Positions 38,333 to 63,972 of a stretch of 64,000 nt of DNA are shown one piece after another. The position numbers and the translations under genes are program-made. Under the pieces are notes generated by a model. That model had not been told where the DNA came from. It worked only from the letters and a program-made list of their open reading frames with translations, and ran no database searches. The DNA is from Amoebophrya sp. A120. Lineage: Eukaryota; Protista; Dinoflagellata. Position 1 is the first letter of the stretch, and each line of letters begins with the position of its first letter. The DNA lies in assembly GCA_905178155.1 (NCBI GenBank), contig CAJINV010000031.1, positions 62,001 to 126,000 on the forward strand, written 5' to 3'.

Positions 38333-40408
38333 TGCTGCTAGAGGAGGTAAATAAGTAAGCGCTCATCCCGACTTTGTCTGTGTCTCCTTGACGAGCAACT
38401 TCAATAGAAAGGAACATAGTCTGTCGCCTTTGTGCAAAACGTATAGAAGAAGAAGAACTCACCAATACCAAAACGTTGTATAGAATGCTTGTTTCAGCTT
38501 GCTCTTTCACACCGAAGGTTTTTTCTAATTACGGCCTAAACCGGGATGACAGAAGGATGCAAGTCCTGCATTGCAATCATGTTTTGCTCTCTTTCTCTCT
38601 TATTAATTTGCTCTTTCATGTCACTGATGGTGGCATAATCTAACTGGATATAACCGGGATAACAGTCAGACGCGTTATTATATCGGATCCTTTGTTTTTG
38701 TTTGTTTGCGAAACCGCGTAAGTAGAAAAAGAGCTCCAAAACGTATAGAATGTTTGTCTGCTAAAATCCGTTTCGACTTCAACTTTTTTCGCGAGAATCA
38801 AATGAATCCCAGACACAAGTCTCGTTTGCCAAAATCCGTTTCGATTTCAATTTTTATTTTCGCGAGAATCATTCATGCCGCAGACACAAGTCTGCTTATC
38901 GGTCCACTCGATCTTCACGCGGCGATTGTTTGCAGGCATTTCGACCAGGCGAATCTGACCTCAGCTGTCAGCTTGATTTTAGCGCTCCAAAACATCGGAG
39001 TTATTCGCGAAGATTAACAAGCAGAAGCAACTTCTCATCATGCTCAAAAGTGACCTAGGAGCAGGATTGCTTTTTTGGACGGCCGCCGAAAGGCTCCAGT
39101 AACTGTTACAGCATCTTGTTTATGCTGCTGTTTTCTGTTGTGACCTCAGGAAGCCAGAGCAGTGGCTCCGATCATGCTGCAGGAGACGTAATAGTGTGCA
39201 ATGAGCCTGGCACAGATTCATTGGTCGTAAAAACATGCAACCAGTAAAACCCGCAGATATATATTTTGATCATTCAGATGAGTCAAAGCACTTCGCCTCT
39301 TCCGCGCTTCGATGATCGCCGCCTCGGCAGCGTCCTTGCCGCGGTCCTGCTCTATTGGTCGAGATCGTAAGTTGATCCTGGATCTAAGTACGTCTATGTC
39401 TTGTTCGAGACGACTACTGGTGGTGGCAATTTTTACTCATGCGCATCACGATCACGTCGGGCTCGGATCACCTGTTAGCATCCAGATGTTGACCGTCTTG
39501 ATCCCTAGAAGCTAATGCTCTCGTCCCGGATTCAGGTAGGGAAAGAGAAAAGAAAAGAAAGTACGTTCCTCCAGTACTGGAAGATCTTGTCGCGGCCCGT
39601 ATGAACCACAGCATCGCGTGATTCAGGCATTTCTGGCATCGCATTCGATCGTACTTACTACTACAAGAAACTACACGGAGATCGTAAGGATAGTTAACAT
39701 TTTACAGACGAGGAACAAAAACATTTATGGTAAAAATATTGAGTAGTAGGTATCATGCAATTCAATTAGTATTTTATATTTGCGATTCAAAAGTTGAATT
39801 TTTTCTACAGCGAATGCTCGAGCGCTTTAGACAATTAAGGAGCTTCCTTGCTTCCAGACGAGCTAGCCAGCAATCCTTGATGCCCTGGACTTACTTCTTG
39901 TGTTGCGACTTCTGTACAGCTTTTTTTGTGGACCATTAGCTTTGAGATGCGTATGTGAATTTCTTCTCGAAATTTATGAATATAAACCTGTATGATTTTA
40001 TTGTTGAAGCTGCTGTTTGTGTAAGATGAAGATGATGTTCACAACCAACTTTGTCCATGGAAGAATTGAGCAGTAGAAGCAGACGCAACTAATTTGCATA
40101 TCGACTGGACGTCGTCCTAGTCCCTCCTCAGGGAGAGTTCGCACCAGCTGCACAGTGCGGAGGTGCGAGCCGGGCTACAACGAACGGACGAGGTTGCTGG
40201 AAGGACTACGAACCGAGAAGCGTCGACGCACAGCTCGTTCCTGAACGCTTGCGTGCATTTTTGACGTCCCCTCCGACGCGGCGGCGTAGAGTATTAAGGC
40301 GAGGACCGGTGAACAACAACTCTGGCCGTTTGTTTTTACGTTGTCAAGGAGTACTTACTGGGCCTTGGCCCCCTAAACCGGGGCACGCCGCAGCGCGGGC
40401 AGTAGAAA

Positions 40409-43400
40409 ATGTCGTCGGATCATCGGGTTGAGCTTCCGGTACCGGTGCAGAAAAACGAGATCTTGACCGAGAATAATAAAGAACATCAACACTACCGGCG
40501 ACAAGGTTTTGCAGAAAGGTATGCCTCGGCCCACTCGCTGCTGTCTTTGCCTTCCTCGGTGGTCGAGGAAGTTCTGGTATCAAATGTAAAAATGTCTGGG
40601 TCTGGAAGATTGCCAGGTTTGTGATGCACATTTTGCATGACTCCTGATGTCTGTGATGCATGCCCTAGCATCACAGATTTTGTGAGGGCTTCCTGATGCC
40701 TATACCGCATGACAAATGCTCTTTCCGTGTAGCAAAACTTGGACTCTCTTTGCTGCTCATGCAATACAGATTTTTTTAGAATCCAAAATCAGCATGACAA
40801 GTGCCAACCTTCCAGACCCAGACATTTTTACATTTGATATCTGGACGACAGCTATGAGTATGATCCAGCACAGTTCGCGGGCGCAACTCTTCTAGAACTA
40901 GACGAGGATCATCATGGCAACAACGTCTCGACTTATAATACTCGCGAGGAGGACGGCCACGGCGCTGGTGCTGGTGGTCAGCGCCAGTCGCTTCGTCTAC
41001 CCGGCGTAGGTGCACCGAACATGGAAGCTGGCGGCTCCTCTCCCTCAACTCGAGTTTTACACTATCCCAGAGAGCATGAGAAGCAGCAGGGTTTTTGCTC
41101 GCCTCGTAGCGGAGATAGGCAAGAAATTTGTGTTTCCCCGAAAGAACAAGCTGCTGTTCTTTCGAAAGGTTCAGCCGCTGCAAATTCGCGGGATGGCTTC
41201 CTCTCCAAGCAGTCGCGGATAGTAGGATCCTCAAGCGGGGGTGTAGTAGTACACCCCTCATCTTCTGCTGCACATCAAACCGAGGTCGAGCAGGAGCAGA
41301 GGAAGAAGAAACTGTTTTCTGCTTTGAGCAGATCGCGGTCTTTGCTGCAGCTGGATTTGGATGATATCCGCGAGAGCGATATCAAATGTAAAAATGTCTG
41401 GGTCTGGAAATTTGTGATGCTGTGTGGCATATCATGAGGAGGCCACAGTTGCTGGCTCAGCATGACAAGTTTCTGAGCTTCTAGGTGTTGCCTATTCTGC
41501 ATGACAAACTACGTTTCTGCATGACAGAAAAGTGGGGCGCTTTGGTAATGTGCATGACAGATTTAAGAGTCATGCCAGACAAGCATGACAAACTTGCATT
41601 TTTCCAGACCCAGACATTTTTACATTTGATAAGCGAGGCGCGCGCACAATTCGCGCAAAAGCGCACGAGATCTTTCCAGTACAAGAGAAGCCCGAGTAGC
41701 TGCACGAGCGACGGCGGTGCTGGCGACAATTGGATGATTACATCCGGTACTATGCGCCTGCTGTCGAGCACCTCACAGCAGCAAGAGGACGGCACTTCTT
41801 GCGCCGGAGTTGTAGAGAGGAACACGTACACGACCGAAGGTGACCCGGAAGCTTGTGGCCGAGGGGATAATCTCTGCCTGATCGACGAGGAGAATCCGGC
41901 GGAGAGGACGAGCGCTGTTCTGCCCACCGGGGACGAGAAATTTTTCGTCGATGAGACGGCAAGTCTTTTACTGTCGAACACGTGGGCGGACAGCATCGAT
42001 GACAAGGTCGACCGCTCTATCCTCCGGAAAAACGTAGTCACCTCCTCGAGCTCGACATTTAGTCAAGATAGCAGTTCTGGTATGCAAGACAAAGAATTTT
42101 GGCTTCTGGTTTCGCGCACGAGGTGGCAAACTTGCTTTGGGTCTCTAGTGCAGCGTACCATAACAAGCCCATTTCTTTTTTTTGAGGACTCCACAATATA
42201 AGTAGATACAGCAGAACAAACTGTGGAACAATTCCTAATTAGCCTGAAAACATGCTCGTTATAGCGCTAGGGCGCATCAATACAAATTCGGCATGCGGAA
42301 GATTTGCATTTGCACGTCAATATGATAAACATGGGGCAGCTCTTGCTAGTACGTTTTTCCGCAGGATACGTATGGTAGAGGACTCGATGCGAGCGGATCA
42401 GTATGTCGATGGTAGGCTCCATCCTGGCAACGACCGGGCACTTGCCGGACGAGAAGAACGGCTTAACAACAGCGAAGTAAACCAGAGTGGCGGCGGCCGG
42501 TGTTCCAACAGCAGTAATCGTTGTAGCGCCGGAGCGCTGGCGCGTAGTGAGCAAGTGGATCACATTATCAAAAGGAAAAATCCCCCCTCCCCATATCAAA
42601 ACGAAGTTTCTGATGCTGGATTTGCGTACACAAATCAGACTTGTCGTGCTGAAGAGGACTGCAGGCCTATACTAGGCCTGAGTAGAGAGGTTTTCTGCTA
42701 GGCGCTACGCATGGCAAACGCGTACTCTGTAGGGCCAACAGCATCACAAACCGCCTGCAGAATGCGGCGGAGCCTGTGTAGTTTCGTTCCTGCAAGACAG
42801 AGATGATTTGAGGTCACAGATGAGCATTACAAATTTCCTGAGATGTGCCTTTTCGATATGGGGAGAGGGAATTTTTGCTTACGATACACATGACCGACTA
42901 TTTTCACGACGTGGCCGAGGAAGACGAGGAAAGCGGCAAGCGGAACAAGGGTCGTGCTGGGCCTCTGAACATGAATCAAGAGGTTCGCATTCCCAAGTCC
43001 ATCTACATGGGCCTTGCCCTGGTCCTCACGGTGGTGCTTCTCGCGTGCTTGTGCGGGGCACTGGCCGGCGGGAACCTGTTTTCGGGGGGGCGTCAGGGTG
43101 CCAACCAACAACTGCGGCCGTTCGACGTGTTCGGGAGCCCGCCGAAAGACCCCGTATCAATTGCAAAAATGTCTGGGTCTGGAAAGACCCAAGGTTTGTC
43201 ATGCTTGTCGGACATGCCTCTCAAGTCTGTCATGCACGACATTACCCAAAACCAAAAGCCCCACTTTTCTATCATGCAGAAGCCCGCTTTGTCATGCAGA
43301 AAAGCCAAGACTGTAGCACCTCCAAAACTTGTCATGCTTGCCAGTCAAATGAGGCGTCCTCGTATTTCGCAACCAGCATTACAAGTTTGCAGACCCAGGC

Positions 43401-46400
43401 ATATTTGCAATGCATACCCTGGAGGTGGTCACGACCGCGACAGTACCACGTTTCAGCCCGGGGTCGACGGTCCCGGCAGCGCGACATCTACTTCCGGGGG
43501 GCCGAAAATAAACCCACTGCCGCCCCCGGTTCCGCAAAATTACTATGATCCCACTTCGGCTCCACCAATTACAGCTCCAACTGCCCCTCCGTCTGATGTT
43601 GTTGTTGTTCCGACTCCAGGTGGACTAGCTGCTCCTACACCATCAACTGTGCCGGGTCATGGCAACATGCCGGCAAGTTCCAGCACACTAGTTGCCCCGA
43701 CGACTTCGTCGACTCCGAGGACCAGCAACACACCCGCGCTTCCATCCGCGAGTTCATCGGGAGACGAGGGAACAAATCCATCAGAACTTCTACCCAGCGT
43801 GCCAGCCGGCGGCGTAGAGGGCCACGACGGGTTGGGTAGTTCAACAGTGTCGTCCGAAGTGACAACCAGTACATCTTCACAAGTTGTACAGCAGCCTACT
43901 AGTACACCAGATTCAGGAGCTGCAGTGGTCGCGCCAGGTGGAACTACTACCTTCGCTGCAGAGCCATCGGCGTCTGGTTCGGCGCAGGGCCACGTAGTAG
44001 CAGAGGTCCCTTCGACTCACCGGGCCGAAACGCAGTCGAGCGCTGCTGTGTCGCAGCAAGGGACTACAACTTTGGACCCTACCCACGACCGTAGTGCACA
44101 TCAACCAAGCAGCTCGGAAGGTGTCACGAGGACTCAGCCACCGGCTGATGGAGCAAATGCCGACTACGGTTTTGATGCGGAAGGTAGCTTGGTCGCACCG
44201 TCCACTACGCGTCGTGTCGGAGAAGTGGAAAATTATGTGCAGAACGCGGGGCAGGAACTGCAGCGGCCTGCGCCAGCATCTAATATCGGCGCAGCTGATT
44301 ACCTAAGTTCAAGTTCTGGCGCATCCTTTTCATCTTTCTCTTTTCCCCGGGAGACGCCAGCATCGCCGCCTAATACAGGGGCACAGCACGGCAGTACAAC
44401 TCCACCGAGTCATCTCGACAGCACCAGAAGCTCCATGCCTCCACCGCCCGCCAGCTATATTCCACGCCGGCTCGCTGCTAAGGGTGATGGCGGCAGTCAC
44501 CACGACGACGATGGTTATGCCTCCACCGCCTGTCCCGCGTCCAGTGCGAGCAGCGAGTACGGAGATAACTCCGAATGCGGGGAACAGCACGACTCTCTAG
44601 CGGGGCAGCTCCACGGCGAAACAGATTCTGCAAGTGGCTCCAGCTGCTTCATGGACACGTGTTTTTTCCCGCCGCATGGGGACCCTACACCTACCGGAGC
44701 TACCACAGGGAACTACAACGGAACCAGCGCTAGCTGTAGCGGTTTCAATACCTCCTCCGGCACCGGAAGATCCTCTTCGTGCTGTTCCGCTAGTGAAGAT
44801 AACGCTTGTAGTTCCACCAGCATGATCTCATCTGGGGATAGTGAAGAAGATGACCGCCCACGACCTCTGCCGCAAAATTTGCTGCTTGGAAATTACAATG
44901 GCGGCGCTGCGTCTTATCTCCATCGCGAAGGCTATCTCGGGAATTCGTATTGGCCCACCTTCGGGGCCGCGGGCCAAAGAAGAGGGTCGCGCGAATCAGT
45001 GGACGCTGCGAAGGACACGCTGCGCTACTGGTACGAGGGGATGGTGCGCAGTTTCAACGAGATGCACGGCTACACGTCTGTGACAAACCGGCGGCCGCCC
45101 CACGTGCTCTTCGAGACAGGGGGCAAGACGGAGCTAGCGGGGGCGTACCCACTCATGAAGACACTGGCCAGGCAGGGCGTGCGAGTCACACTGCTCGCGC
45201 CTTTCGGAAAGTTCGCAAGCAGGAACTCGTCGTTGTACACAACGAAAACAACTACTTCGAAGATCGCGGGGGCTGCTCCGAAGATTGACGCCACTACATC
45301 CCGGCTGTATTCGCTAGACCCGGTTCCAAACGTTGACGCTCCGGTGCTTCCGGAGCGACTGATGCCGGAGGAAGACCGCGGGGTTGGTGAGGACTACGAA
45401 GACCCTATCACATGAGGAGAAACGGGGGTCCCACCATCCATACCTATTGGTCAAGTTGGGAACTTTGCAACACAAATCCAGAAGTCATAGGAGTTACGCA
45501 CGATAAGTTTTCGCTCTCGGTGCTGTTGTCGTGTTTTGCTAGTAGTGCAGCTGCATCACAAGAAATCGATCTTTTTATCATGATGAGAGCATCACAAGTG
45601 CTTCCCAAAAAGCATTAGAAAATGGTTCTCATGGGGAACAACCGCATGCGATGACACATATTAGAAGGCACGTAGATTTGCATATACAACTCTCGGATCA
45701 ACACGGGGACCACGTTTTTCCGCACGATAAACCCGGAGCAGGACCGAGTCGCGTGGGACTTTGGCCTGCCCGTCCACGATTGGCGGGCGCTGGAGGAGGC
45801 CGGCGTCACAGTGGTGCCGTTGAAGCCGCGGGACGTGATTCACAACTCGGGCTGGCTGTTTGCGCAGCAGGCCAAGGACAGCAAAATTCTTCGCTGGTCG
45901 CGGGACTACAAGTTCACGGAAAAGTTCATTGCGGAGTACATTCTGGGGGAAAACCCGGTGGACTTCGTGATCAGCGACTGCTACGCGGCGGGCAGCGGCG
46001 TGGCGAAAACGCTGATGGAGACTTTGCGAGTGCCCGGCAGCATCTGGTGCGGTAATTTCCACGGGGCCTGGGCGGCCCGCTGGGTGCTGGATCGCACCAT
46101 GCGCAGTTCGCCTGGCTCCAACAAGTCGCCCACGGACTTCTTTCCGACCTTTGTGCAACACTTCCTGCCGTCGGAAGTCACCAAGCAGACGGGGTCCTGC
46201 TTCCCGAAGGTACAAATCAGGAAGGAAGTAGAGGGCGCTGCAGATGAGAGCCTTCATGGTAAAAAGTCCTCGTGCAGCACTTGCAATTCTAGTTTCATAA
46301 GAGCTGGTGCATCAGATACGACGGAAGACGACTTTGATTCCGATGTTGACAGCACGACCGGAAGCTCCCTTCGGAGCTGCAGTGGTGACAGTTATTGCAG

Positions 46401-49400
46401 CAGTCTCTGTAGCACTAGCGGTGGAACAAGTTGTGGCTCTATCAACAACTCCACTGTGCTGACCACTAGTACTTCGCTAACCCCCCGGTCCGCGACACCC
46501 CTTCGGGTGGATTGCCGGATGCCGGGCCCGAACCCACACGATCGCCGCACGATTCCCAACGTGGTCATCGCGGCGCAAAGTGCGAAAGCACGGACGATAA
46601 GCATCGGAAATCCTCGCACAGAGGCCGGGCAGGAAGGTACTAAAACTTCTACACCAGAAAAAATAGCCGAACGTGATCCAGACATTTTGTGGATGCGCGA
46701 ACGGGTGGCCGCATTGGAAGCCAAACTGCTGCAAGGTCGTGCTGGGGAGACGTCCAAGAGGAGCAACGGTGAGGTTTTTAACACCACTGCACGTCGCGGC
46801 GGTTCGCGCTTGCAAAGTGAAACTATGCAGGTGAAAATTCTCTACATTGCGTTCGGGCGACAATCGTTTAACTTCCACTACCTTGCTATGGAGCACCTGT
46901 GGCGGAGTTTGCGAAACATGCCGGAAAACATCCTCTATCAAATGCAAATATGTCTGGGTCTGGAAGGATGCAAGGTCTGTCATGCACAGTTTGCATGACT
47001 GCTGACGTCTGTGATGCATGCCCTAGCATCACAGATTTTGTGAGGGCTTCGCGTTGCCTATACCGCATGATAAATGCCGTCTCGTCGTGGCAAAAACTGG
47101 AACTCCTTTGCTTTTCATGCAATACAGATTTTGTTAGGATCCGAGTGCAGCATCACAAGTTGCAACCTTCCAAACCCAGACATATTTGCATTTGATATCC
47201 TCGTCTACCTAGTTGCGCCAGACGGCATGCAGTGGAAAAATGAAGAAAGTGCGCTGCTGGGCAAGCTTGGGCGGAAACAGATCACCTCTGCTTGGGTCCA
47301 ACGGCAGTACGGCAAATGTGTTCGACTGCAGCATCGGGTTTTCGCAGGTAAACTGAAGTGGATGAAAACGAAAAGTCGTCGTCGCACCAGGAGCAGTTGG
47401 CGAAACACGGTTGCGCGCCAGCAGGCCGAAAACTATTGTGTGGGTATCTGGAAAGACGGCGTGCACGACAGAGAACTGGATGAAATTGATATCTCGCCGG
47501 AAAAAAGCCGCACCAGAAGTAGAAAGCAGAAAACTTCGTCCGCATCTTCATCCGCAGCCACGCGGCCGCGCGGCTTTGATGGTAGTACTTTATTCCGCAA
47601 GATCGAGGTGACGCTGAATGCTCCGCAGCTGAAGCTTTTCCAGACCTTCCTATCAAAATGAAAAATCCCCCCACCTCATACTCAAACTAGAAATTTGTGA
47701 TGCAGATTTGTGTCACAAATCAGCTTTGTCATGCTACTTAGAAGGGAAAGGATGCGGACTTTAGTGCTGGTTGGCGTGGGAAAGCCTTGCATCTTCAGCA
47801 TGACAGGGGGCAGCTGGAAGTGGGAAACAGCATGACAAATTGCCTGCAAACGAGGCCGCAGCTGCGTCTCTTGGCCTTCTAGCATTACATGTCGATTTGT
47901 GTACTCAAATACAGCATCACAAATTTCGTTTCCGATATGGGGACGGGGGATTTTTCCTTTTGATACTTCCCAGAGCAAGTTTTCTACGTCGCGCACGGGG
48001 GCGTGAGCGGGCTCACGGAAGCGATCGGCCTCAAGGTTCCCATCATTTGCGTGCCCATGCTGTTTATGGATTGCAAAAATGTCTGGGTCTGGAAAGATGC
48101 AAGTTTGTCATGCTTGTCTGGCATGATTCTGCATTCTGTATTGCGTGGCCACCAAGAGGCCCTCTTGCCTGTCGTGCAAAAGCGCAGTTTCTCATGCGAA
48201 ATACGCAGCACAGAAGCACAAAAATAGTTGTCATGCTTGGGGGCGCATTACAGAGCGCTTATTGTTCACGGACTTGCATCACAAGTTTCCAGACCCAGAC
48301 ATTTTTGCATTTGATGCTGTTTCCGGATCAGCCCGCGAACTGCCGGGCTGTCGAGAAAGCCGGGATCGGCCTCAACCTGAGCCAGCACGTGACGTGGAAG
48401 CTGTGGAAAAGTCGGTCCCTGGTGATGCGGCCGGGCGGCGAAGCCCTGCTGCACTGGTGGGACGAGAACGGGTGCTACGCCGGAGAGGAGGAATTCCGGG
48501 CGGACCGCAAGACGCACCCCAGGGAGGTGGTCTCCTTGGACACCGCAGTGACGTATCTGCTCGAGAAAGAGCACGCCGCACGCGTGTACGCGAAGCTGGA
48601 AGAGGTGTACGCGGCTCTGCAGAAGGAGGCAGTCGACCGGGAAGACGGGCTTGCGCCGTTCGTAACCGAACTCTTGGAGGACTTGAGCCGCGGCGTCCCG
48701 CAAGAAAAAATTGCAGCGGAGGGCGGTTTGCACTTCGCAACGGTGCCACGGTATTCCGAGATTGGTGATGATGTTCGACGCCCACGAGAACAAAAGCTAG
48801 GGGACGATGATCATCATAAAGTTGCGACAGAACTACGGGTTAGTACCCTTCTAGATGCTGCAGATGGTCGTCAACAGCATGCAGGAGATGAAGCTCTAGA
48901 TATTGAACAAGCTTCTTCGTCGTCCAGCACATTTGGTCGTGCCAACGGGGGGCGCACTAGCACCAGCCGCGGTACCGTGAGTCTGTCCCTCGACCTGGGT
49001 GGTTCGGGCTTGAAAGCTATGTTTGTTCGTGTATCCACCAAGAGAACTACTAGTACCGAGGAACCACGAGAACCGAGGACCGAGGAGCCGTCCTCTGTTA
49101 TTAGACAAGGAGAGCCCGGCGTTTTTACCACAGTCATGCAGCTGGACCCCGAACTGAAGCCAAAGTTTGAATTTCCCGAGCTGCGTTTGAGTTTGACCCC
49201 GAGCGAGCACCGACTGGGTTACGTGACGGACATCCGCGGCGAGCCGCCCACCGAGTGGTTCATGCGTCGGCTACGGCAGGAGTACGGTGCAGCGATTTAT
49301 AGTACCTTTCCACCAGGCCCAAGCCGCAGAACTACTGCAGGGCCGCCGCGCCAGGAGCTGCCCACAACCGGCATGAGTTCCGCGCCACCAGGATCTCCAC

Positions 49401-52400
49401 TACGGCCGGATGGCACGGCCCTCTTGCGTTTTGGTCTTGCTCCCGCCGACGTCGTTCCTGTGGACCTCGCCAACCTGACTTCTAGTGCGATCCACATCAG
49501 CGCCAGCTCCGGAGACAGCTACAAGCTACTTGGCCCCACCGAACAAAAAGCATCAAAACGCCTGATGGAAGCGGTTTTGATGGGTAGTGGTTCTTCATCA
49601 GGAGGAGCTGGACAACAAGAACATTTTTATCGAGAGCGCAAGAAGAGTCGAGCGTGTCCTGGGAAGCGGGAAGTTGAAATCCAACTAAGTGAAAGCGATA
49701 AAGCGGTCTGGGGACAGTACTGCCACTCGTTTGTAATCTGCGAGGAGGAAAGGCGCAATAAGACGGGCGCAACGTCGGCGACCAGCTCTCGGCAGCAACT
49801 ATACGCGGAGGAGTTCTCGCAGCATCGAAGTGGTGGAGGTGCTCCGCCCCACAAGGACGAGCTGCAGCTTCTACACGGGCGCTGCCACGAGTGGAAAACC
49901 CTGAGCCAGTATCAAATGCAAGAATGTCTGGGTCTGGAAACTTGTGATGCTGGATGGCGTCTCATGATGAGGCCACAAATGCTGGCTCAGCATGACAAGT
50001 TTCTGAGCTCCTAGGTGTTGCCTATTCTGCATGACAAACTGCCCTTCTGCATCACAGAAAAGCGGAGCTCTTGGGTAACGTGCATGACAGATTTAAGAGT
50101 CATGCCAGACAAGCATGACAAACATGAATTCTTCCAGACCCAGACATTTTTACATTTGATAGCCAGATTTTCACGGGGGTCCGGGTGTCGGCTCGCACCG
50201 ATTCCGAGGTTCACCAGACCGCGGCTGGGACCTTGCTACGCGATCTGGAGGAAATGAGGCACCCTAGCAGCCGTCCGGACTGGAGAAGCATCGACATATG
50301 AAAACAGACAACGAAACTCCCCTCTGACCTCGAAATTCGATCATGAAATATGTGTGTAGAAGGATTACGCACTGATCAAGACATTAAGCATGAATCAGCT
50401 TTTTACTAGCATTTCGCTTGCTTGTCGTGTAAACAAGCCTGAGAAGAAGCATGAACCGGGAATACAGAAGATCGGTGCAACACGTTGGAGTGCTACCGTT
50501 GACGGAGGAAAAGAAATGCTGCCTTGTATCTATACTTGTAGTAGCGATGTTGAAGCGCCGCAGGAGTAGTTATAGTCCCTGCGTTGTTCTTGAACTTGTG
50601 TCTGTGCTGTCATGTTGTTGATCAAAATCTGCCTGAGCCTGCAGATGAGGCGGAGGTGGAACAACGCTTCCATTTGATACGATGTGTCGAACTACGTGAA
50701 TGTGGCTGCGGGAACCCATCTGGCGGTGACGTTTGTGAGCGCGGGTGCGGACGGGAAGCCGGCTCCGATGGGTTACCTGGACATGGTCAAGGGGCTCGTG
50801 CACAAGAAAGCGCGCGGCCTGCATCAGAAATACTTGTCCGACCTGCTGGTGCCGCTGCCGGCCCGTATTATGAACGAAAACTCGAAGAAACAGGTGTACC
50901 GGCTGGAGGGCATGCGGTGGCTGAACGACCCCAGTATTGACTACTCGAAGCCGTTGTCGGCAGCCGCGAAGTATGCATTGCAAATATGTCTCCTGGGTCT
51001 GGAAACCTGTGATGCTGGTTTGCGAATCATAAAAGCAGCCTCCAATATGGGGACGCGCATGACAAGTTTCTAAGCGACTAGGTCTTGCGTCAAATGCATG
51101 AGAAACTGCGTTTTTGCATTACAAAAAAATAGACTGGTGGCGCAACATGCATGACAAATCCTCCTCTCCTGTCAGCAGAGCATTACAAGTCTGGTAATCT
51201 TCTTCCAGACCCACACATTTTTGCAGTGGATACGTTGCGGCAACTAGATGAGAACGAGGACCAACGCGCGTTTTTGCCGGCCGGCGTGCTACTCGGCGGC
51301 CACGGGCAGGCGGACAACCAAATTGAACCGTACGTGAGCGCCTTCGCGTGGACCAAGTTCTTGCGCGAGCAGTTGGCCCCATTGGCAAAGCAGTGGTTCA
51401 ACATCGAGCACCAGTCGACATCTTCTGCTGCTCGGAAGGAGGGCACGAAAGGACAAGAAGAGGAAACATTGTCAGGCATCACGGGAAGGAGCAGCGGTAC
51501 GAGACGGTCGGCGGAGAATGAAGCCGAGGGAGAGGACCCGCGGGACGGGAGCACTAGTCATCCACAGAAGCGGTGGGTGCAGCCGGATGAACAAGAGCAA
51601 GTCCTTGGCACGTCACACCCCGAGAATATTACTAGCACGCAGGGACAAGAAGAAGAAGTGCGGAGAACAGCAAGAGCATCTTCAAAGAGCCCCTTAATAC
51701 CCCTCGTGCTAACTGGTGGACAGGCCAGTGCGATTTTGCGCGCGGCGGGACCGTATCAAATGCAAAAATGTCTGGGTCTGGAAGATTCTGAGACTTGTCA
51801 TGCACGTTTTGCATGGGCCATGATGCCTGTGATGCATACCCTAGCAATACAGATTTTCTGAGGGCTTCTTGATGCCTATTCCGCATGACAAATGCCTTCT
51901 CAGCGTAGCAAAAACTGCATTGCCTTTGGTACTCATGCTATACAGATTTTTTTGGAATCCAAATGCAGCATCACAAGTTCGGACTCTTCCAGACCCAGAC
52001 ATATTTGCATTGCATAGACCGAAATCGAACCATGGCGATGAGACGCTCCGGTATTTGCGAGAAAAGTTCGGGATTGTGGTCTTGGCGGGCTACGATTCCT
52101 ACGTCCACTGCGGCACCAAGCAGATGGAGAACTGGACGTCGCGGTCGCCAGGTAGTTTACAACAACAGCACGACGGCTTATTTCAAAACAATACCGCCCT
52201 CGCAGTAGAAACTACGAAGCGGTCCTGTCGTGGGTTCGCACCGGAGGAAATCCGGCGACGCGCCGAGCAGTACATGCATAGTAAGGGGGAAGAGCAGGAT
52301 GATGAGTCTCCGGGAAGATCACCGCGGAAGAACAAGACGACGACAAGGAACAACGGCCCGGCAGCTCTTTATAATTCTTCCGGAAGACCAATGAGCAGGA

Positions 52401-52801
52401 GAAGTAGTAACACGCTTTCCCTTGATGTTTCGGGCCATGATGGAAATACTAGATCCGAACCAGATGTTGAACAAGAAGCAAAAATTACAAGTAGCCCTCG
52501 TCCAGAAGATGAAGATGTCGTGTCCAACATCTCGAGCATTGACTCAACATCATTTTCACCCTTTTATTCGCCGCCGTCACGTCGACCCCGCGATGCGATT
52601 CTAACTGTGCACGACGAGAACACCGGATACAATAGCGAAAGGCGAGTCACAGTTGTAAACGAGACCGCTTCATCGACTGGTCCTAGAAGTACTTGTTTAG
52701 AACAGCCTTGCGGTCATGGAAATAACAGCGAAAGTCGCCGCCCCGCCGCGGATCTGCCCCAGTATGGCGCAGATGGAGCGCTTGCACTCGGCAGCGATTA
52801 G
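40409..52801 (+). CDS. Large membrane-anchored protein: TM + mucin-like stalk + GT1 UDP-glycosyltransferase + ROK/ASKHA-like sugar kinase (link of 40409-42120 to the rest uncertain)
   Basis: TM IYMGLALVLTVVLLACLCGALAG near 43000; GT1 motifs PPHVLF..LARQGVRVTLLAP, DFVISD, LYIAFG, APQLKLF..FYVAHGGVSGLTEAIGLKVPIICVPMLFPDQPAN; then LSLDLGGSGLK, VSARTDSE, YVNVAAGTHL, LVLTGGQ; 12 element introns. Confidence 0.75.
40578..40839. mobile_element. TIR introner element, family A (262 bp)
   Basis: Family A TIRs; TSD tctgg; near-identical to 10886-11147. Confidence 0.95.
41380..41631. mobile_element. TIR introner element, family A (252 bp)
   Basis: Family A TIRs; TSD agcga; near-identical to 49910 and 63311. 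Confidence 0.95.
42566..42886. mobile_element. TIR introner element, family I
   Basis: TATCAAAAGGAAAAATCCCCCCTCCCCATATC...GATATGGGGAGAGGGAATTTTTGCTTACGATA; TSD cacat. Confidence 0.93.
43155..43416. mobile_element. TIR introner element, family A (262 bp, open in the host frame)
   Basis: Family A TIRs; TSD ccccg/ccctg. Confidence 0.92.
45406..45729. mobile_element. TIR introner element, family D-like (diverged)
   Basis: TATCACATGAGGAGAAACGGGGGTCCC...GGGACCACGTTTTTCCGCACGATA; TSD gaccc/aaccc; gives YEDPEQDRV. Confidence 0.85.
46936..47197. mobile_element. TIR introner element, family A (262 bp)
   Basis: Family A TIRs; TSD tcctc. Confidence 0.95.
47651..47965. mobile_element. TIR introner element, family I
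   Basis: TATCAAAATGAAAAATCCCCC...GGGGGATTTTTCCTTTTGATA; TSD cttcc; splits the GT1 signature. Confidence 0.95.
48065..48316. mobile_element. TIR introner element, family A (252 bp)
   Basis: Family A TIRs (right end GATG); TSD ctgtt; gives PMLFPDQ. Confidence 0.93.
49910..50161. mobile_element. TIR introner element, family A (252 bp)
   Basis: Family A TIRs; TSD gccag. Confidence 0.95.
50297..50679. mobile_element. Old, degenerate TIR introner element
   Basis: Ends TATGAAAA...CATTTGATA with weak internal TIR; TSD cgaca/cgatg; removal bypasses a stop and joins in frame to SNYVNVAAGT. Confidence 0.65.
50972..51232. mobile_element. TIR introner element, family A
   Basis: TATGCATTGCAAATATGTC...ACATTTTTGCAGTGGATA; TSD cgaag/cgttg. 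Confidence 0.9.
51754..52016. mobile_element. TIR introner element, family A (263 bp)
   Basis: Family A TIRs; TSD gaccg. Confidence 0.95.
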
Positions 52802-55072: not shown

Positions 55073-58000
55073 ATGCGGGGCTCCCGCGGACAACAAGAGA
55101 GCGCAGGCGGCGAAACGCCGGGTGGAAGCGCCGGGAACGATGCAGACCCTTCTCTCGGCGGAAGATCTTCAGGTTTACTTCAGAATGAAGATCCGAATGA
55201 ACAAGATGAGAAGATCTTGTGGTCGGAGGCGGACATTTCTTACATGGAGCAGTGGCTCAACGACGCGGAGAAGAGGCAGCTCCGGAAGAAGATACATGTG
55301 ATTAAGGAGTGCAAGGGAAAGTGTCGCACCTTGCAAACTATCCAATGCATCAAATAGGTCTGGGTTCTGGAAGACGAGTGCGAGATCTGTCATGCAGCTT
55401 TTGCTTGACCAAAGTCCGATCGGGCATGCAAACTCTAGCATCACAGATTTTGTTGAGCAGGTACTTACCCCACTGCCTAATCCGCATGACAAATCCACTG
55501 TTTCGGTAAAATAAGAACTGGGGCCTTTTGCTAGCCATGCATGACAGATTTTGTCATGGTGTAGACTTCTGCAAATCGCAAATCTGAATTTTTCCAGAAC
55601 TAGACACATTATATATTTGCAATGCATACAACCCATGGTAGACACTCAGGGGAAAGGAGAGCCCCTGGTGGAAGAGACGGGTCAAGGCTTGGAATATGTG
55701 ACGCGGCGACGGCAGATTCTGGAGTACTGTGAGGAGCAAAATACGGGGGTCCGTAACTTGAAGGGCGCTGCAGCATCGAGACAAGCGGAAGCGCGGAGAG
55801 AAGAGGAACGGCAACAGCAACGGAGGAAAGGCGCGCTGCCGGTGCAGCACCGCGGAGACGGACCACCCGGACCGCAAGTAGAAAGGCCGTTACTCCAAAC
55901 TTATTCACCGCAAAAGTATAATAAATCGTGTAGTCTACTTACTACTCGTATATGAAAAGATTCTTGCTGAAGTAGATGTCTTGCATGACATTACCATTAG
56001 ATCTAGCAAATCTTATCGGAATTATCCGCATGACAAATTTTCACCGCTGTTCGTGAGAAAATTTATCATGCAAAATAAATGTGTACGACTACGTCTACAA
56101 CGCTTTTGCACCAATGCATAAAACTTTACTTGAGGAACAATATCAAGAAGCTCCAGCGATCGACGAGAGTCGGCACGCTGCGACACGGGTAGAAGTACCG
56201 GCGAAAATGAATCCCACTGGTGCCGTCCAGGTGTTGGACTTCGGCTGCAAGGAGCCGTCTGCGTCGAGTGCCACTGCTTCGGGTTGTAACATCTTCCAGC
56301 AGCAACCTTCCAGCAGTAGTTCTCGACCACCAGTAGCTTGTTCGTCTGTGACAGCACTAAAACCCGGTGGGGGACCACTCGGGAAACCAGAACAGTTGTT
56401 GATGTCGCGGCCCATACAATGTACCAGTGATGAAGTAGTGTTTTCAAAATCAAAATTTGGAGAGCGAGATGCTTGCTTTCGTTTTCTAGCGGAATGTTTT
56501 ATTTCTGACCCATTCAATTGCATACAAATGGCATATGTTTTCGTTTTCTTCGCATGGATGTCGGTTTTTCAAATAAACGTCGTCGGCGCTACTTTTCAGG
56601 TTCCGACGAATTTACTCAAGATTTACTCGACCGAATTTGTGCCGATCATCGCGATTGTTCCAAAGAAGTCCGTCTGGGGCTGTGGAACAAAAACCCGACT
56701 CCACCGAGGCCAACGGGTCAGGACACGACTGCACTTCTTGTTCCCGAAACGATGAACAACAGGGCAACACTTCGAAACCCCGCTGGGCAAGAACATCCAC
56801 TTGCACAGAACGCTGAAAATAAGGTCGTGCAGCACGACGACGACCACGTTGATAGCGAGAGTGTCTACTTCGAGCGGCCGCCCGATAATTGGAGGTCGAG
56901 GTCTGGGTCTTGGATGCCGGACGAGGAGGTCAACTCTGCTTCACCAAAGAACGAAATCTACGTTGGCCCAGATCTACTTGCTTCTAGCAGTAGTGGCAGC
57001 TGCAAGAACATGTTGCCGAGTGGACAAAAGTCCCCTTCTGCTTTTGAGGGCCTAGGCGCACGACCCGAGTTGGGCGACGGGGAGGACAGCAGCAGTATTT
57101 TGGAAGAAGAGGAAGATGTGTGCGCTGTGGCGCGGAACCCCCTCTGCCATCTGCTAGCGGACGATGAAAGCAGTTGGAGAGAAGTGCTACCAAACTGCAT
57201 CAACCGTCGTGCCAGGAATTGGCTCGGTAAAATTTATTTGTGTCGAGGATCTTCACTTTTGAATGATGATGTTCGTCCGCCTGCGCACTGTATGTTATGA
57301 CTGAGGTTGAGTCATTTGAGTCGTGAAAATGTAGTGGCATATGAAATTTAGAGGACAATTTTACTTATTTTGGTTGGAACAATGGAAGAACAAGCAAGTG
57401 CCTACCAATTTTGCCGACTGCCTAGCGTGGCACGCTCGCAGACCATAACTGTTGGTGCACGACGATTTCTCGAGAAGCTACTGCAACCTGCAGCGGGAAC
57501 GCCTCGACCAATCGGACGTCGACGCTTACACCAACCGCATTGCGCTCATCCTGCGCGTGACCGGGCACATCGACGCAGGTGGTGGTATCATCGGCCCGGC
57601 CGAGGGGGCCCAGACCACCCGGAATGCAGCACGGAACTTTTTGGCGTACTCGGTGCCTCTCAACACCAGGGCCGACGACCTGCCATCACTTGCAGGAGCT
57701 TCAGCACAAGGAACTTCATCTTGTGATGTGCCTTTGGCTTTACCGCCGCCGAGCACAGATTTGACTGATACGCTACGCGATTTCTTATCAACGAGTTTGC
57801 AATTTTCATCCGATAAAAGTTCTCTGGCGGAGGAAGTTGACGTTGAGGACTCAATTTCTGCTGAAGGATCATATGCATTGCAAATATGTCCTCTGGGTTG
57901 TCTCCTGCTGGTGCTGGAAGACTGCGAGATTTGTTTGTCATGCTAGTCTGACATGCCGCTGCAATTTGTATTGCATGGCCACCAGCAGTCTCTCTTGCCT

Positions 58001-59564
58001 GTCATGCAAGAACGCAGTTTCTCATGCGAAATTCGTAGCGCAGCAGCACGACGAAACTTGTCATGCCTGGCGGCGCATTGCAGTGCATTTATGTTTCACA
58101 GACTTTCATCACAAGTTGAAGTTGAAGTTTGAGTTTCCAGCAGACGCAGACATATTTGCAACGCATAAAAGAAGTAGTTCATCTTTCGGGTCTTTCGCCC
58201 CGGACCACGCACTGCTTGTGTACATTCCGCAAGCGGAACTGAGTCGCGCTTCGGAACAGGCGTTACCACTGAAGAAGCCGAACTTCGAACATTCCGCATT
58301 TGCGATCCTGAATGAAGTTACGAAGCAGGTAGAAGAATAAATACATAGCAGACGTCTCTAGTACTTCTCTATCTCTTTATGTTTGCAAGAAGAATTGCAT
58401 ACTTGCAGCCCGAAAATTATCAATCTCCGAAAATTCTAGAAAAAAAGCTTTCAAATTCAACTTCGACTACATCGGAGATCGATTGCCGAAATCGAATGAC
58501 AATAATAAAACTCTACCGTAGTTGCAGACCGCAGATATTGGGACGACGAACAAGGACTTGAAGCAGAAAACCACCAACGGCGGCGTAGGTCTGCTGTGCC
58601 TCCTGGCCCACTCCGCGCAGGAGGAACGGCACTGCTTGGAGCTGAAAATCCGGCCACGCGAGGCGACGCTGCAATCGTGGCTAGACGGCAAGCCGGATGC
58701 TCGGCGTGACGAAATGTTGTCGAGGACCACCTGCGCAAAACTCGCTGGTGCAACCAAAACCGAGACCTTCTTCCTGAAGCAGCAGATTGAGGCAAAAACA
58801 ATCGTCGAGACCCGAGCGCGCGGGTTGGGAGATGTCCTGTCTTGGTGTGGGCAGGACAAGAACTTCGGCGACCACTACGAAATGAGCTTGGTGGCAAATG
58901 CGTTACCACCAGCAGAGGCAACCACGAGTGGACCACCGGTGGACTTGCTCGACTTAGAGCCCCTTTCTGCTCCCGGATTCTTTCTCATTGCGTTCACGCA
59001 AGTTTCGACCCAAAACGGTCGCTCCGAGGTCCTTCGTGATTTCCATCTCCCGCCCGCATGCAGGTACATAGTTCTTAATCGGACTTTGTGTTTGTCGAAC
59101 TGTTCTACACGAACAAATTGAAGATGAAATGCTGAAAAATTGAAATGGTGCAGCTTCCCGATGTAGTTTTGCAGAAATAACCAGTTGTTGAAACCCAGAG
59201 CTGCTGCAACTTTATCATTTCTTCTTGCACGACGACCTGGCGTCGCAGTTTTTGTTGTCGCAAAATGTGTTTAAATTTCTTCACCAGATCGCTGTACCTC
59301 TACCGGTGGGCAGAAAAGCGTGTGGCGTGGGGAAAGTGCGATGGCGCGGCGTGCTCGTTGCAACGGCAGAACCTGGGGTGTAACGTTATTACCGTCAAAG
59401 AGGACCGGACGGAAATGGGTCGGGATGGCAAAACGCGTACCGTCGAGAAGCAGTTCTGCAGCTTCTGTCGTGGCGAAAACCTGCATTTACCGAAAAAGGC
59501 GATCATTCGCTCCGGTTACAAACTGGATCTCGGCTTCGGATTGTACTACGGAGTTTATCGTTGA
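55073..59564 (+). CDS. Hypothetical multi-exon protein (could be more than one gene)
   Basis: Chain of + strand GC-richer ORFs (55073, 55551, 56081, 56518, 57452, 58522, 59265); two junctions restored by element removal; no family recognised. Confidence 0.5.
55339..55628. mobile_element. TIR introner element, family A (diverged)
   Basis: TATCCAATGCATCAAATAGGTCTGGG...ATATTTGCAATGCATA; TSD caaac/caacc. Confidence 0.88.
57872..58167. mobile_element. TIR introner element, family A (diverged, TSD eroded)
   Basis: TATGCATTGCAAATATGTC...GACATATTTGCAACGCATA; flanks gatca/aaaga; removing element + 5 nt keeps the frame. Confidence 0.85.
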
Positions 59565-59721
59565 TATTGTGTGCAATTTTATCTAAACATCACATATCGA
59601 ATTCGAGTTTGTGTTCTTGTTTCATGTTTCGGCGCGTGCCTCGCGAAGGATATTTGCACGATCAATCGTAAGCAGATGACTTTTTGATGTCACTATCGAA
59701 TAATGTCAAAACAGGACTCCG

Positions 59722-62700
59722 TTGACGAGCGCAACGGCGCCTAGCAGCAGAGCCCGGGGTCACCAAGTAGGGCCCGGAGCACAACCGTCGTCCTCGTCGG
59801 CTGCACCGCCGGCGGTGCAGTATCCGGATTTCATCACCTATGGTGCCACTGGCAGTCCGCTCTCGGAGGCAGCTCTCGACGACGGGGGCCACGGTAGTGG
59901 TAGGAGTCCACCTCCCAGCGGGTTGAAGGTCAGGTGGGGCCCTGGATCTACTTCGAACAACAAGGGCGTCGTCCACATCACGGCGGTATCAAGGGCAAAA
60001 ATGTCTGGGTCTGGAAGAGTTGGAACTTGTGATGCAAACTCTGGAACACACAAAAATTTGTGTTGCATGAGCGCCAAAAGCTGTCCATTTCTTGGTACGC
60101 AAGTAGAAAGTTTCTCATGCGGGACAGGCGTCACGAGGCGTGCTCAAAACCTGTGATGCTTTTGCCTGCACCAGACGCCATTTGCGCGATCCGAAATATG
60201 CATGACAAATCTAGAAATCTTCCAGACCGAGACACTTTTGCATTGGATAGGCGGCCTCTTGTGATGTGTCCAGGGAGAACGTGGAGGACGTGCTGCAACA
60301 CGTTGAGACCCAGTTGCGGTATGAACTGCAAATATGTCTGGGTCTGGAAGAATGCAAACTTGTCATGCTCGGCCGACAATGCACAAGAGTCTGTCATGCT
60401 TGTTGTGCTACAGTGCCACTTCTTTGCCATGCAAAAAGGCAATTTGGCACGCGATTAACGCTAGACGTAGCCAACCAGAAACTTGTCATGCGCGGCTCCG
60501 CAATACAGTTTGCGTATCATTCGGACATCAGCATGACAAGTTTCCAGACCCAGACATATTTGCAATGCATATGTGGTCGATCGGAGCGATTCTCCCGGGA
60601 GGTGAGGAAGCTTCATCCACCGGGGATCAAACTACAAGTGCCTGGCAACCTGCGACGACGAGAAACTTCGAGGTGGTGGATTTCGATTTCTCAAACAACC
60701 GACAACTTGATTGCTACTGCACCCGGATGCTCACGAATTGGCTTCAGTACCACGAGCTCATGCCGCGCTCTTTGAAGCTGTTCAAGTGCAGTCTGGGAAA
60801 CCGGGGCGCCAATGTGATTGCCTCGTACTTAATTTTATACTTACTAGATAAACTACTTACAACCAAATAATAGATCTCGTACTTCCACCTTTACTGCTGC
60901 TTCAGTTCCTCGGTTGTTTCCGTCGGCAGTGATAGCAGTCTTTATTCCGTTTGATTGATGTTTCTTCGAACAATTTCTTCTACTTCCAAACTGAAACTAT
61001 TGCTCGTCCGCTATTTTTCTCCACATAAGATAATTCAAAATCAAATTCTGTCATTGCGAAAAATTTTTGTCCAGGTTTTTACGGAATTTCAAACGGTTTT
61101 TACTGGGCGCGCGGATGGACGCAGGTGACACGTACCCATGGGTGATGGAGGAACTGCACTTGTCCGATAACTACATCGAAAACGCGGGCATTGCGCCACT
61201 CATCAAGTTTCTCAGCGACGAGACCACCGAGAAATTGTTACGACAGTGCACTATTCCCCCTCACCCTCATTTGTCATGCAAAATCCCAACTTTACCTTCG
61301 GCCTGTTAGCACTTTTTGCATGACAGACTCCACAAGCCACAACAGCCCTGCAATCCTCTTGGAATTTGTCATGCAAAAGCTGCATCTTTGCCAGCGCTTG
61401 TGTTGCTGTTCATGCAACACGAATGAGGGGGAGGGGGAGTTGTGCACTCTCATAATTGTACCCGCGCGTGTACGAGCCGTCGGTTGGCGACAGAAAACAA
61501 ATGATTGCGGAGCTTCAGGACAGAGGTACTTGCTTTATAAAGTAAGTTGTAAACTTCAACTTCTCGCCCTGCGATACTAAATTGATGACTAACTAAACAA
61601 AAGTCTACATTATACCACGCGTCCGCTCAACATTCTCTTCTCGTCAGGCCTTCCTTTTTTTTGCCTCCCTCCTCGCTACGAAGAAGACGCGAAAAACGCG
61701 ACGTGCATAGAAATTTCAGCAATAAATTCAGTAGACATTCATTCTTGGCTGGTGCCCAATTTGATGCGGATGTGAAGAAGTAGACCCTTTGTTTTGTTGT
61801 AATTACTTCTCAACACGCAAGGCTTGTCCAGAGTAAATTCCAAGCTCCGAGGCACAACTTGAAATGCTTCACCGTAAGTACGACAAACTACCAGGTTACG
61901 ATAGCGAGGAGCACAGATTCACCTACGGGATGCGCATTATCAAAATGTTGAAAAAATCCTCCCTCCCCGTACTCAAACTCAAAATGGAATACTGGTGTGC
62001 GCACATTGTGCGTCAGAAGCTCACCCATTTTGAATACTACCGGGAGGGTGGATTTTTCTTTACGATACACTTTTGCCGCCCGCTTATCAAATGCAAGCAT
62101 GTTGTCTTGTTTCGATCTGGGTCTAAACTTGTGAGAATGCTTGCTTGCAACTGCAGTTTCGTGATGCTTTCATCGAGTGTACCTAAGCTTGACTTGTCTT
62201 GTGTGTAGCTTGCGGCATTTTTATTGGATGGCAAAATACGTCGCGCTCGCGCTTTGTTTGCGAGTCATAGTACATAACAGGTTCTCGTTCATGAATGCCA
62301 GACACACAATACAAGAGCATTTTTTATTGTTCCCGACCAAGACTACATATTTGCGATGCATACCGCTGTGGGTTCGCCTCGATCGCAACCTTTTGGACGT
62401 GCCGAAGTTGGTGCTTGTCGAGGGTATGTCGGTGTGTGATCTGCAAAAACACAGGTGGAGCCAGCTGCGCGGTAAAAAGTTCCGTTTCCTGGCCATTGCC
62501 CTATCCCGTGCAGAAAGAAACATCTCGTCCACGACGACTCAAGAGTCAAGCTGCGAATGCTGCAACATCGAACTGCGAAGAAATATAGTTATGCCGAAGT
62601 TTTGGAAGTCACGCATGACAAGATCTCATCTGTAGTGTAGCACATGCGCGCAAAAACAGCTTGAAGAAAATCTTCATGACAACTCTGGGGTGTCTGTGGG

Positions 62701-63307
62701 CACCAGCTCCGGTTTTTTTTTACACAGGATACGCGGGGGAGAAAAATTACCAGACGTACCCGGTTTTCCGGGACGAGTGTGCCGCAGAATTGTACCCAGC
62801 GGCCCACTTCAGCCATATCTATAAGCAATGGGCACGCACGGCGACGAGAGGCCAGTACAAGCAGACCAACCAGTCTCCCTTCGAAAACGACGACTCTGGG
62901 TGGAATTCCTACGGGTACGGGGGCTCCAGCTGGGATATCAGAATGAAAAATCCCCCCTCCCCATATCAAAACTGAAATATGTGATGCAGATTTGTGGTCA
63001 CAAATCAGCTTTGTCATGCTAGAAGGCAAAAGATGCGGACTGTACTGCTGCCTAGCGTGGGAAAGCCTTGCAGCTCCAGGATGACAGGAGGCAACTGGAA
63101 GTGGGAAACAGCATGACAGATTACCTGCAATCTAGGCCGCAGATTCGTCTCTTGGCCTTCTCGCAATACAAGTCGATTTGTGTACTCAAATACAGCATCA
63201 CAAATTTGCGCATCTTCCGTTTCCGATATGGGGAGGGGGGATTTTTCCTTTTGATATGGGAGAAAAAGTCAGGAGGTAGTCCGTCCCCGAAATGGTGGAA
63301 GAAATAA
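59722..63307 (+). CDS. RNI-like leucine-rich-repeat protein (start uncertain)
   Basis: VVDFDFSNNRQL, PRSLKLFKCSLGNRGA, MEELHLSDNYIENAG, EKLYPR, PLWVRLDRNLLD after removing 7 elements; stop TAA at 63305-63307. Confidence 0.7.
59987..60249. mobile_element. TIR introner element, family A (263 bp)
   Basis: Family A TIRs; TSD ggcgg. Confidence 0.95.
60320..60571. mobile_element. TIR introner element, family A (252 bp)
   Basis: Family A TIRs; TSD tgcgg/tgtgg. Confidence 0.95.
61239..61454. mobile_element. TIR introner element, family F
   Basis: TACGACAGTGCACTATTCCCCCTC...GAGGGGGAGTTGTGCACTCTCATA; TSD attgt. Confidence 0.92.
61938..62067. mobile_element. TIR introner element, family I-like, short (130 bp)
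   Basis: TATCAAAATGTTGAAAAAATCCTCCCTCCC...GGGAGGGTGGATTTTTCTTTACGATA; TSD cgcat/cactt. Confidence 0.8.
62085..62362. mobile_element. TIR introner element, degenerate family A
   Basis: TATCAAATGCAAGCATGT...ACATATTTGCGATGCATA; TSD ccgct. Confidence 0.88.
62502..62731. mobile_element. TIR introner element, family D-like (diverged)
   Basis: TATCCCGTGCAGAAA...TTTTTACACAGGATA; flanks tgccc/cgcgg; removing element + 5 nt keeps the frame. Confidence 0.75.
62936..63256. mobile_element. TIR introner element, family I
   Basis: Family I TIRs; TSD tggga; closely similar to 47651-47965. Confidence 0.95.
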
Positions 63308-63838: not shown

Positions 63839-63972
63839 GACGTAAAAAACTATTGGCAGCATATGACGTAAAAAACTATTGGCAGCATATGACGTAAAAA
63901 ACTATTGGCAGCATATGTAAAAAACTCAAGATTGGCAGCATATGTAAAAAAACTACTGGCAGCATATGTAAA
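63839..63972 (+). repeat. Tandem repeat, unit about 26 bp, about 5 copies
   Basis: GACGTAAAAAACTATTGGCAGCATAT repeated, later copies degenerate. Confidence 0.9.

Follow-up and report, generated by a model that had tools for sequence, protein, structure and literature searches.

The TAT...ATA element at positions 57872-58167 of the 64-kb window (the whole stretch of 64,000 nt from Amoebophrya sp. A120 that was analysed) lies within a gene on the + strand, and its 5-nt flanks, GATCA and AAAGA, are alike at only 2 of 5 positions, as a first-pass annotation of this DNA had read them. The locus raises the question of what fixes the borders of the removed segment when the direct repeats at the two ends of an insert have decayed. 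It had been proposed that excision is measured from the element ends instead of relying on repeat homology, and that mismatched duplications mark the exact cut. Both proposals agree with the results described here. Repeat identity does not set the cut: one joint has no letter in common between its two sides, and mismatches are spread evenly over the five duplication positions. Moreover, seven informative junctions share a single position, at which the intron starts 1 nt before the terminal TAT and ends 4 nt past the closing ATA (the −1/+4 register). The inserts are likely to be transposon-derived, and splicing likely removes them from pre-mRNA at a set distance from their own termini. We assign a probability of roughly 0.8 to a fixed −1/+4 cut rule.

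Junctions of the element introns

Among the 11 sequencing runs listed, X1 was DNA-like, and X3 to X6 came from one sample that was taken to be RNA by guess. The contigs of X3-X6 behaved as spliced RNA, in that they skipped GT-AG introns. Within 57450-62930, 11 joints were obtained, identical in all four of these runs; five corresponded to GT-AG introns, and the other six rows spanned seven elements, each of which was skipped together with 5 nt. The joint at the focal element (57870>58172) skipped 301 nt with 1 shared letter in 4 of 4 runs, and its pieces contained 0 other letters. The joint 62500>62736 skipped 235 nt with 0 shared letters in 4 of 4 runs. It was the sole form listed there, and its depth equaled that of the canonical joints of the same contig. 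A joint without a shared letter argues against both homology-guided removal and slippage during reverse transcription. Variable junctions or canonical splice sites at degenerate copies had been named as the outcomes that would contradict a measured cut; no junction variants were found among the joints listed (contigs drop rare forms, and minor junctions may exist), and no decayed copy had GT-AG ends under the common register. Instead of the canonical U2 ends GT...AG, the focal intron has AT..AG, and the intron starting at 62501 has CT..CG.

The cut range of each junction was expressed as the number of left-copy bases kept (Table 1). This range was 4-5 for the focal element and exactly 4 for the element at 62502; taken alone, intron 57871..58171 could equally be cut 1 nt further to the right. 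The junctions of 57188, 50972, and 55339 were read from the ends of contig pieces and not from listed joints, and in the case of 57188, the pieces 56600-57184 and 57450-57870 are adjacent in the contig record. The sole value common to the seven informative junctions was 4. The chance that all seven fit 4 is 5e-4 if cuts are uniform over 0-5; for agreement on any single value, the chance is no more than six times as large.

The element at 50972 is oriented opposite to those at 57872 and 60320, and all of them keep the left copy. The cut polarity thus runs along the transcript irrespective of element orientation, which points to an RNA-level event. In the DNA-like run X1, two contigs (55529-58021 and 57999-60020) crossed both ends of 57872-58167 with 0 differences and at the depth of their neighbours; no joined form was found in this DNA, as judged from the contigs and the listed joints of one run, whose contigs likewise drop rare forms. 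In the 5′ repeat of the element at 61938, approximately 4 extra nt lie between TAT and the A-run (by eye); the cut nevertheless follows the terminal TAT, and an inner feature of the repeat does not set it. Where elements are adjacent, each pairs with its own ends, and the transcript retains both a 68-nt piece and, between two such elements, a 12-nt micro-exon.

Of the possible cuts, 0, 1, and 3 were the ones that produced stops in frame (5 cases in 76 elements, which is weak evidence), and a cut after position 3 at the focal copy would create an in-frame TAA. At two sites the encoded residue would tell the cuts apart: at 42018 it is M for a cut of at most 3, L for 4, and S for 5, and at 50297 it is V or M.

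Published data bear on the same register. In Table S4 of Farhat 2021 (PMC7789003; this and the other papers are cited from partial text), N-T (GT, CT, AT, or TT) opens 9 of 9 predominant A120 sites and TA opens none, and this site list fits the −1 register as independent support. The portions of that paper cited here name BLAT and Gmove for border placement, and the treatment of ambiguous borders is not stated further in them. Perfect repeats, which flank 365 of the 487 elements described below, leave an aligner unable to place the cut; published borders would therefore be expected to look variable.

Table 1. Coordinates of the element introns, the focal element, and the genes that contain them (range, number of left-copy bases kept)
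Feature	Position	Strand	Element and flanks	Remarks
TAT...ATA element (focal)	57872-58167	.		296 nt; terminal inverted repeats TAT-N7-AAA...ATA
Left duplication copy, positions 1-4 (GATC)	57867..57870	+		Retained in transcript; closes upstream exon
Non-canonical intron (focal), 301 nt	57871..58171	+		1 nt + element + 4 nt; ends AT..AG under common register
Right duplication copy AAAGA	58168..58172	+		Under common register, positions 1-4 leave with intron and position 5 opens exon
Element intron	62501..62735	+	62502-62731; TGCCC/CGCGG (2/5)	Cut unambiguous at −1/+4; ends CT..CG
Element intron, strongly decayed	57187..57451	+	57188-57447, TAC...ATA; AGTGC/ACTGT	Range 2-4
Element intron	61937..62071	+	61938-62067; CGCAT/CACTT (3/5)	Range 4-6
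Element intron	60319..60575	+	60320-60571; TGCGG/TGTGG	Range 3-6
Element intron	50971..51236	+	50972-51232; CGAAG/CGTTG (3/5)	Range 4-5; start of piece 51237-51748
Element intron	55338..55632	+	55339-55628; CAAAC/CAACC	Range 4-5; end of piece 54638-55337
Micro-exon, 12 nt, between two adjoining elements	62072..62083	+		In transcript; 6 letters between sides
Host gene	55073..63307	+		About 1345 codons; 12 element introns, 6 GT-AG introns; 1357-codon open frame after their removal
Neighbouring gene	40406..52798	+		2856-codon frame after removal of 13 elements + 5 nt each; no canonical intron in model

The element family and its 5-nt duplication

A single 2/5 flank match such as that of the focal element does not exceed chance, and the element family and the transcripts were therefore used to test the claim of a 5-nt duplication. 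The window contains at least 54 such elements (curated list). Metagenome contigs were scanned with the commonest terminal motif, which gave 136 stretches, and 133 loci (824 kb, partly overlapping) were analysed; none of the 133 was orthologous to the window. By end motif and repeat complementarity, without any flank term, 487 distinct elements were detected (35 from the window). Their flanks matched at 5 of 5 positions in 365 elements, at 4 in 69, at 3 in 26, at 2 in 13, at 1 in 9, and at 0 in 5. The match rate was 0.89-0.93 at flank positions 1-5 vs 0.19-0.30 outside, and duplication lengths other than 5 nt were at chance level. The element ends thus show the features of a MITE (miniature inverted-repeat transposable element), namely, terminal inverted repeats, a target duplication of fixed length, and short length. 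Both element orientations were frequent (40/47, 15/26, 6/5).

The focal element itself is complementary at 19 of its 22 terminal bases and shares 81% identity across 182 nt with the copy at 48065. The predicted RNA fold of the focal intron pairs its ends (z = −2.15).

Frame closure was examined in 299 of the 487 elements, those with a clear reading frame on both sides, and was resolved only modulo 3. The frame closed with 5 of the 10 flank bases kept in 196 of 208 elements with 5/5 flanks outside the window, in 38 of 41 with 4/5 flanks, and in 17 of 20 with 2-3/5 flanks; the corresponding window counts were 14 of 15, 3 of 3, and 5 of 6, which are not independent because the window supplied the training data for the codon model. 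Among elements with 0-1/5 flanks, the frame closed in 4 of 6. The reading frame by itself cannot separate removal of the element plus 2, 5, or 8 nt; the RNA contigs do so. The earlier claim that removal of the element plus 5 nt persists at decayed repeats is therefore upheld both by the 2-3/5 set and by the RNA-like contigs that skip 301 nt at the focal copy. The flank values given with it were also reproduced (2/5 at 62502, and 3/5 at each of 472, 11216, 29462, 36065, 50972, and 61938). Its further statement that the terminal TAT/ATA persists held for the focal element and failed for 472-747 and 11216-11326, both of which end in ATG. Variant ends were seen elsewhere as well: the 5′ end is TAC at 17742, 57188, and 61239, and the 3′ ends of 472-747, 11216-11326, 48065-48316, 17961-18222, and 19696-20000 comprise ATG three times, GTA, and ATC. 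As judged from the sequence, the frame would still close at the element plus 5 nt in these five elements with variant 3′ ends.

The annotation had also suggested tabulating the mismatch rate per duplication position. This was done with the strand-called elements of the window and the metagenome loci (332 of 340; the 8 with a flank match below 2/5 were left out). Mismatches at positions 1-5 numbered 27, 22, 16, 21, and 20, respectively, which is consistent with evenness (chi-square, p = 0.56). A window excess at positions 1 and 4 (11, 5, 6, 12, 4) was gone in this larger set.

Two further features of the family were observed. The insertion phase was uneven, the first base of the duplication falling into the three codon-position classes 143, 100, and 89 times among the 332 elements, with a similar lean in the window. 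The element at 36065-36735 is unusually long (671 nt). Within it, at 36323-36488, lies a further TAT...ATA inverted repeat, which is weak and possibly a nested or remnant insertion.

Sequence features at the borders

Among the 332 elements, no preference was found at the first intron base or the last four, AG was not enriched at the intron ends (21 of 332), and there was no preference for a purine at the start of the next exon. Spacer indels not divisible by three occurred on both sides of elements with perfect flanks. An apparent occurrence of 3′-side indels in threes did not hold in a second set (shifts of −1, +1, +2, +2, +3, and +3), and the shifts of 6 in the first indel set were mostly anchor artefacts. 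An exact terminal helix does not seem to be needed for removal.

Under the −1 register, T+2 and A+3 occur in 18 of the 18 introns modelled for the host gene. All 18 thus carry the U2 donor feature of T at +2 followed by a purine at +3. The canonical donors of this gene are GTAC (five times) and GTAG (once).

Proposed mechanism and alternative explanations

In the mechanism that we propose, a MITE-like element would enter an exon in either orientation and duplicate 5 bp. Left-copy positions 1-4 would then be kept in the transcript, together with position 5 of the right copy, as is seen at the junctions where the copies can be distinguished; a fresh insertion would thereby restore the coding sequence exactly. 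The mismatch and frame statistics indicate that the two copies would subsequently diverge evenly by position with the frame retained. At the 5′ site, N-T-A-(T/C) would be recognised, which lines up with the GTA(C/G) donors of the gene, and the 3′ site would be set 4 nt past the closing ATA with no sequence preference. The closing (T)GAT/CAT-A could conceivably act as a branch point. The inverted repeats may bring the ends close together or serve as a motif. Because this geometry cancels the 5-bp duplication in either orientation, any exon insertion would be silent at once, and such instant silence, if true, would explain the tens of thousands of introns of this type.

The agreement of the T+2/A+3 register with the GTA donors of the gene makes a relaxed spliceosome likely. 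A120 is reported to keep nearly all spliceosomal proteins and U2, U4, U5, and U6, while U1 was not detected (PMC7789003, in the portions cited). In A25, the repeats begin with TTA, and 9 of 9 predominant sites begin with TT (PMC7789003 Table S4); the A25 elements would give the same +2/+3, so that anchoring on U+2/A+3, if true, would be common to A120 and to the TTA elements of A25, which are unrelated. The retained spliceosome parts, together with the Fritillaria borealis precedent, in which non-canonical introns are removed by a modified major spliceosome (PMC13326754; review PMC11282704), favour the spliceosome. We therefore place slightly better than even odds on a spliceosome with relaxed requirements for G+1 and AG as the machine. 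More broadly, we lean, at slightly better than even odds, toward a splicing route that ignores both terminal dinucleotides and counts from N|TAT ... ATA-NNNN, being either a spliceosome that lacks U1 and is anchored on U+2/A+3 alone or a second, non-spliceosomal system convergent with that of Euglena.

A number of observations weigh against this reading or its parts. The neighbouring cut of 5, at the element edge, is excluded only by 62502 and 57188, and the junctions derive from one RNA sample, in the form of contigs, with a guessed RNA label. A120 sites are described as variable in PMC7789003. The terminal pairing probability was at most 0.12 in 6 of 14 RNA-supported elements, and selection for RNA pairing was not seen among the strand-called elements (G-U 187 vs A-C 187). 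Decayed copies showed no drift to G+1 or terminal AG (AG in 3 of 25 vs 16 of 257), which counts against a spliceosome because a residual preference might show as such drift. In one set, the 5′ T was more strictly conserved than the 3′ A (332 of 332 vs 324 of 332, p = 0.0075); however, this was not reproduced in two further comparisons (121 of 121 vs 119 of 121; 290 of 291 vs 291 of 294, p = 0.62). A base-composition (AT-bias) test for which copy is intronic was null (35 vs 39). Finally, T+2 and A+3 are built into the element, and their match with the GTA donors may be a coincidence.

The same register could be produced without the spliceosome, if a dedicated RNA endonuclease and ligase recognised the symmetric motif or the hairpin at the element ends and counted off 1 and 4 nt. 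Such an enzyme pair would account for the conservation of one motif at both ends, for function in both orientations, for the lack of preferred bases where the intron begins and ends, and for the failure to detect U1 small nuclear RNA in A120 (PMC7789003, as cited). It would also suit the finding that in none of the 12 introns behind the listed joints is a GT-AG end combined with an element end, and it has a parallel in Euglena, where fixed 3- and 5-nt spacers from a paired motif are required and separate machinery has been suggested (PMC12501133). On the other hand, the register brings the element into line with canonical T+2/A+3, a frame that the published A25 sites also follow. Moreover, 6 of the 14 supported elements are not predicted to pair in register at their termini, and no wobble bias is apparent. 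We regard a nuclease and ligase as a possible but doubtful explanation. A cut floating within the duplication, guided by homology or slippage so that only the net length of the element plus 5 nt is fixed, is improbable: all seven junctions are compatible with one position (p ~5e-4), 62500/62736 has zero shared letters, and the variable-looking published borders, which might seem to speak for floating, would follow sufficiently from unplaceable cuts in perfect repeats.

Excision could also take place at the DNA level, in the transcribed life stage, in the manner of ciliate internal eliminated sequences. The transposon anatomy would agree with this, and the DNA and RNA runs are different samples, so that a stage-specific excised template could have been transcribed. 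However, DNA contigs were unbroken through both element ends at the depth of their neighbours (one DNA run), and the asymmetric cut follows the transcript direction for oppositely oriented elements, which makes DNA excision very unlikely. Least credible of all is the possibility that the skips are reverse-transcription artefacts ("falsitrons") at hairpins with direct repeats. A hairpin with short direct repeats is the setting described for them, and the present data are presumably cDNA-based; nevertheless, breaking one repeat abolished the product in a falsitron study (cited from partial text), whereas the joint 62500>62736, which has no shared letter, is the sole listed form at its site. In addition, the frames of 2856 and 1357 codons open only after element removal, and weakly paired elements are skipped as well.

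Relation to known introns

The element family is already published, with a reported count of approximately 30,000 elements. Like the elements analysed here, the introner elements of A120 (Farhat 2021, PMC7789003) have TAT followed by seven looser bases and then at least three A, are approximately 240 nt long, and form repeated families; they have direct repeats of 3-5 nt, RNA-supported removal, and ends other than GT-AG. They differ in that the sites are given there as variable, the border as unknown, and the repeats as 3-5 nt, whereas 5 nt and one asymmetric register were found here. Fig. 3 and S19-S23 of that paper may already show this class as the commonest. In the literature searched, mostly outside subscription journals, no paper stating a fixed cut or independence of the repeats was found, and the same figures may bear on this point. 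An asymmetric −1/+4 register that is independent of the duplication appears to be new.

In Euglena (Nomura et al. 2025, PMC12501133), the nonconventional introns are likewise not GT-AG and have inverted repeats and a suggested MITE origin. A paired motif at their termini likewise defines the borders through spacers of fixed length, which are 1 and 4 nt in the present case. The Euglena motif is CAG (+4..+6)/CTG (−8..−6), with spacers of 3 and 5-6 nt and a purine at the start of the next exon. In contrast, the analysed elements have TAT/ATA, spacers of 1 and 4 nt, and no purine preference, and they lack the CAG/CTG pair. Euglenid nonconventional introns are described as being excised as full-length circles. 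The introns of F. borealis (PMC13326754; PMC11282704) are also transposon-derived, with inverted repeats and target duplication; they prefer the ends AG-AC and AG-AT, whereas the analysed elements show no preference at the first base or the last four. The introners of Micromonas and Aureococcus (PMC11282704, PMC7789003) are similarly MITE-like and become introns on insertion with one duplication copy removed. Unlike the analysed elements, which need no AG, they carry or co-opt canonical GT/GC and AG.

How the published elements are removed has been an open question, with borders reported as variable or unknown. A single register would turn seemingly random splice sites into a short code that names the cut bonds, so that lariat or circle mapping, models of U6/U5 pairing, and spacer mutations can be designed. 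It would also provide a rule for re-annotating the gene models of this genome, and it would explain why these elements, in contrast to introners that co-opt AG, can insert without a particular target sequence. Together with Euglena, this would be a second case of ruler-type non-canonical splicing arising from MITEs.

Host gene, neighbouring gene, and other features of the window

The host gene model reproduces transcript record positions 355, 3512, and 4077 exactly; its last two introns (62935 and 63310) are predictions, as the listed joints do not extend to them. No Pfam family was found at the cut-off in the scanned exons of this gene or of the neighbouring gene, in two scans of 41 and 8 exon pieces. 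A stretch of the host protein encoded at 61076-61237 resembles a leucine-rich repeat (LRR_6, E 0.23, below the cut-off). The transcript contig of the neighbouring gene extends approximately 800 nt beyond the stop codon, to 53612. For this gene, a search among longer proteins with a 661-aa exon found no relative and no annotated full-length protein.

Two raw-read RNA runs of 2026 with the same species label (X9 and X10) did not cover the stretch. In X9, approximately 90 reads lay over one element end at 50130-50161 with foreign flanks; these reads may represent either a related strain with the element kept in one RNA or DNA carry-over. Elsewhere in the window, a 7-nt micro-exon is predicted at 15350-15356, between elements 15068-15345 and 15358-15566, both of which have perfect flanks. 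A 26-nt tandem repeat in five copies is present downstream of the host gene at 63839-63968. In the window, almost every long frame and each GT-AG intron with RNA support is on the + strand, which agrees with reports of one-directional gene clusters in Amoebophrya.

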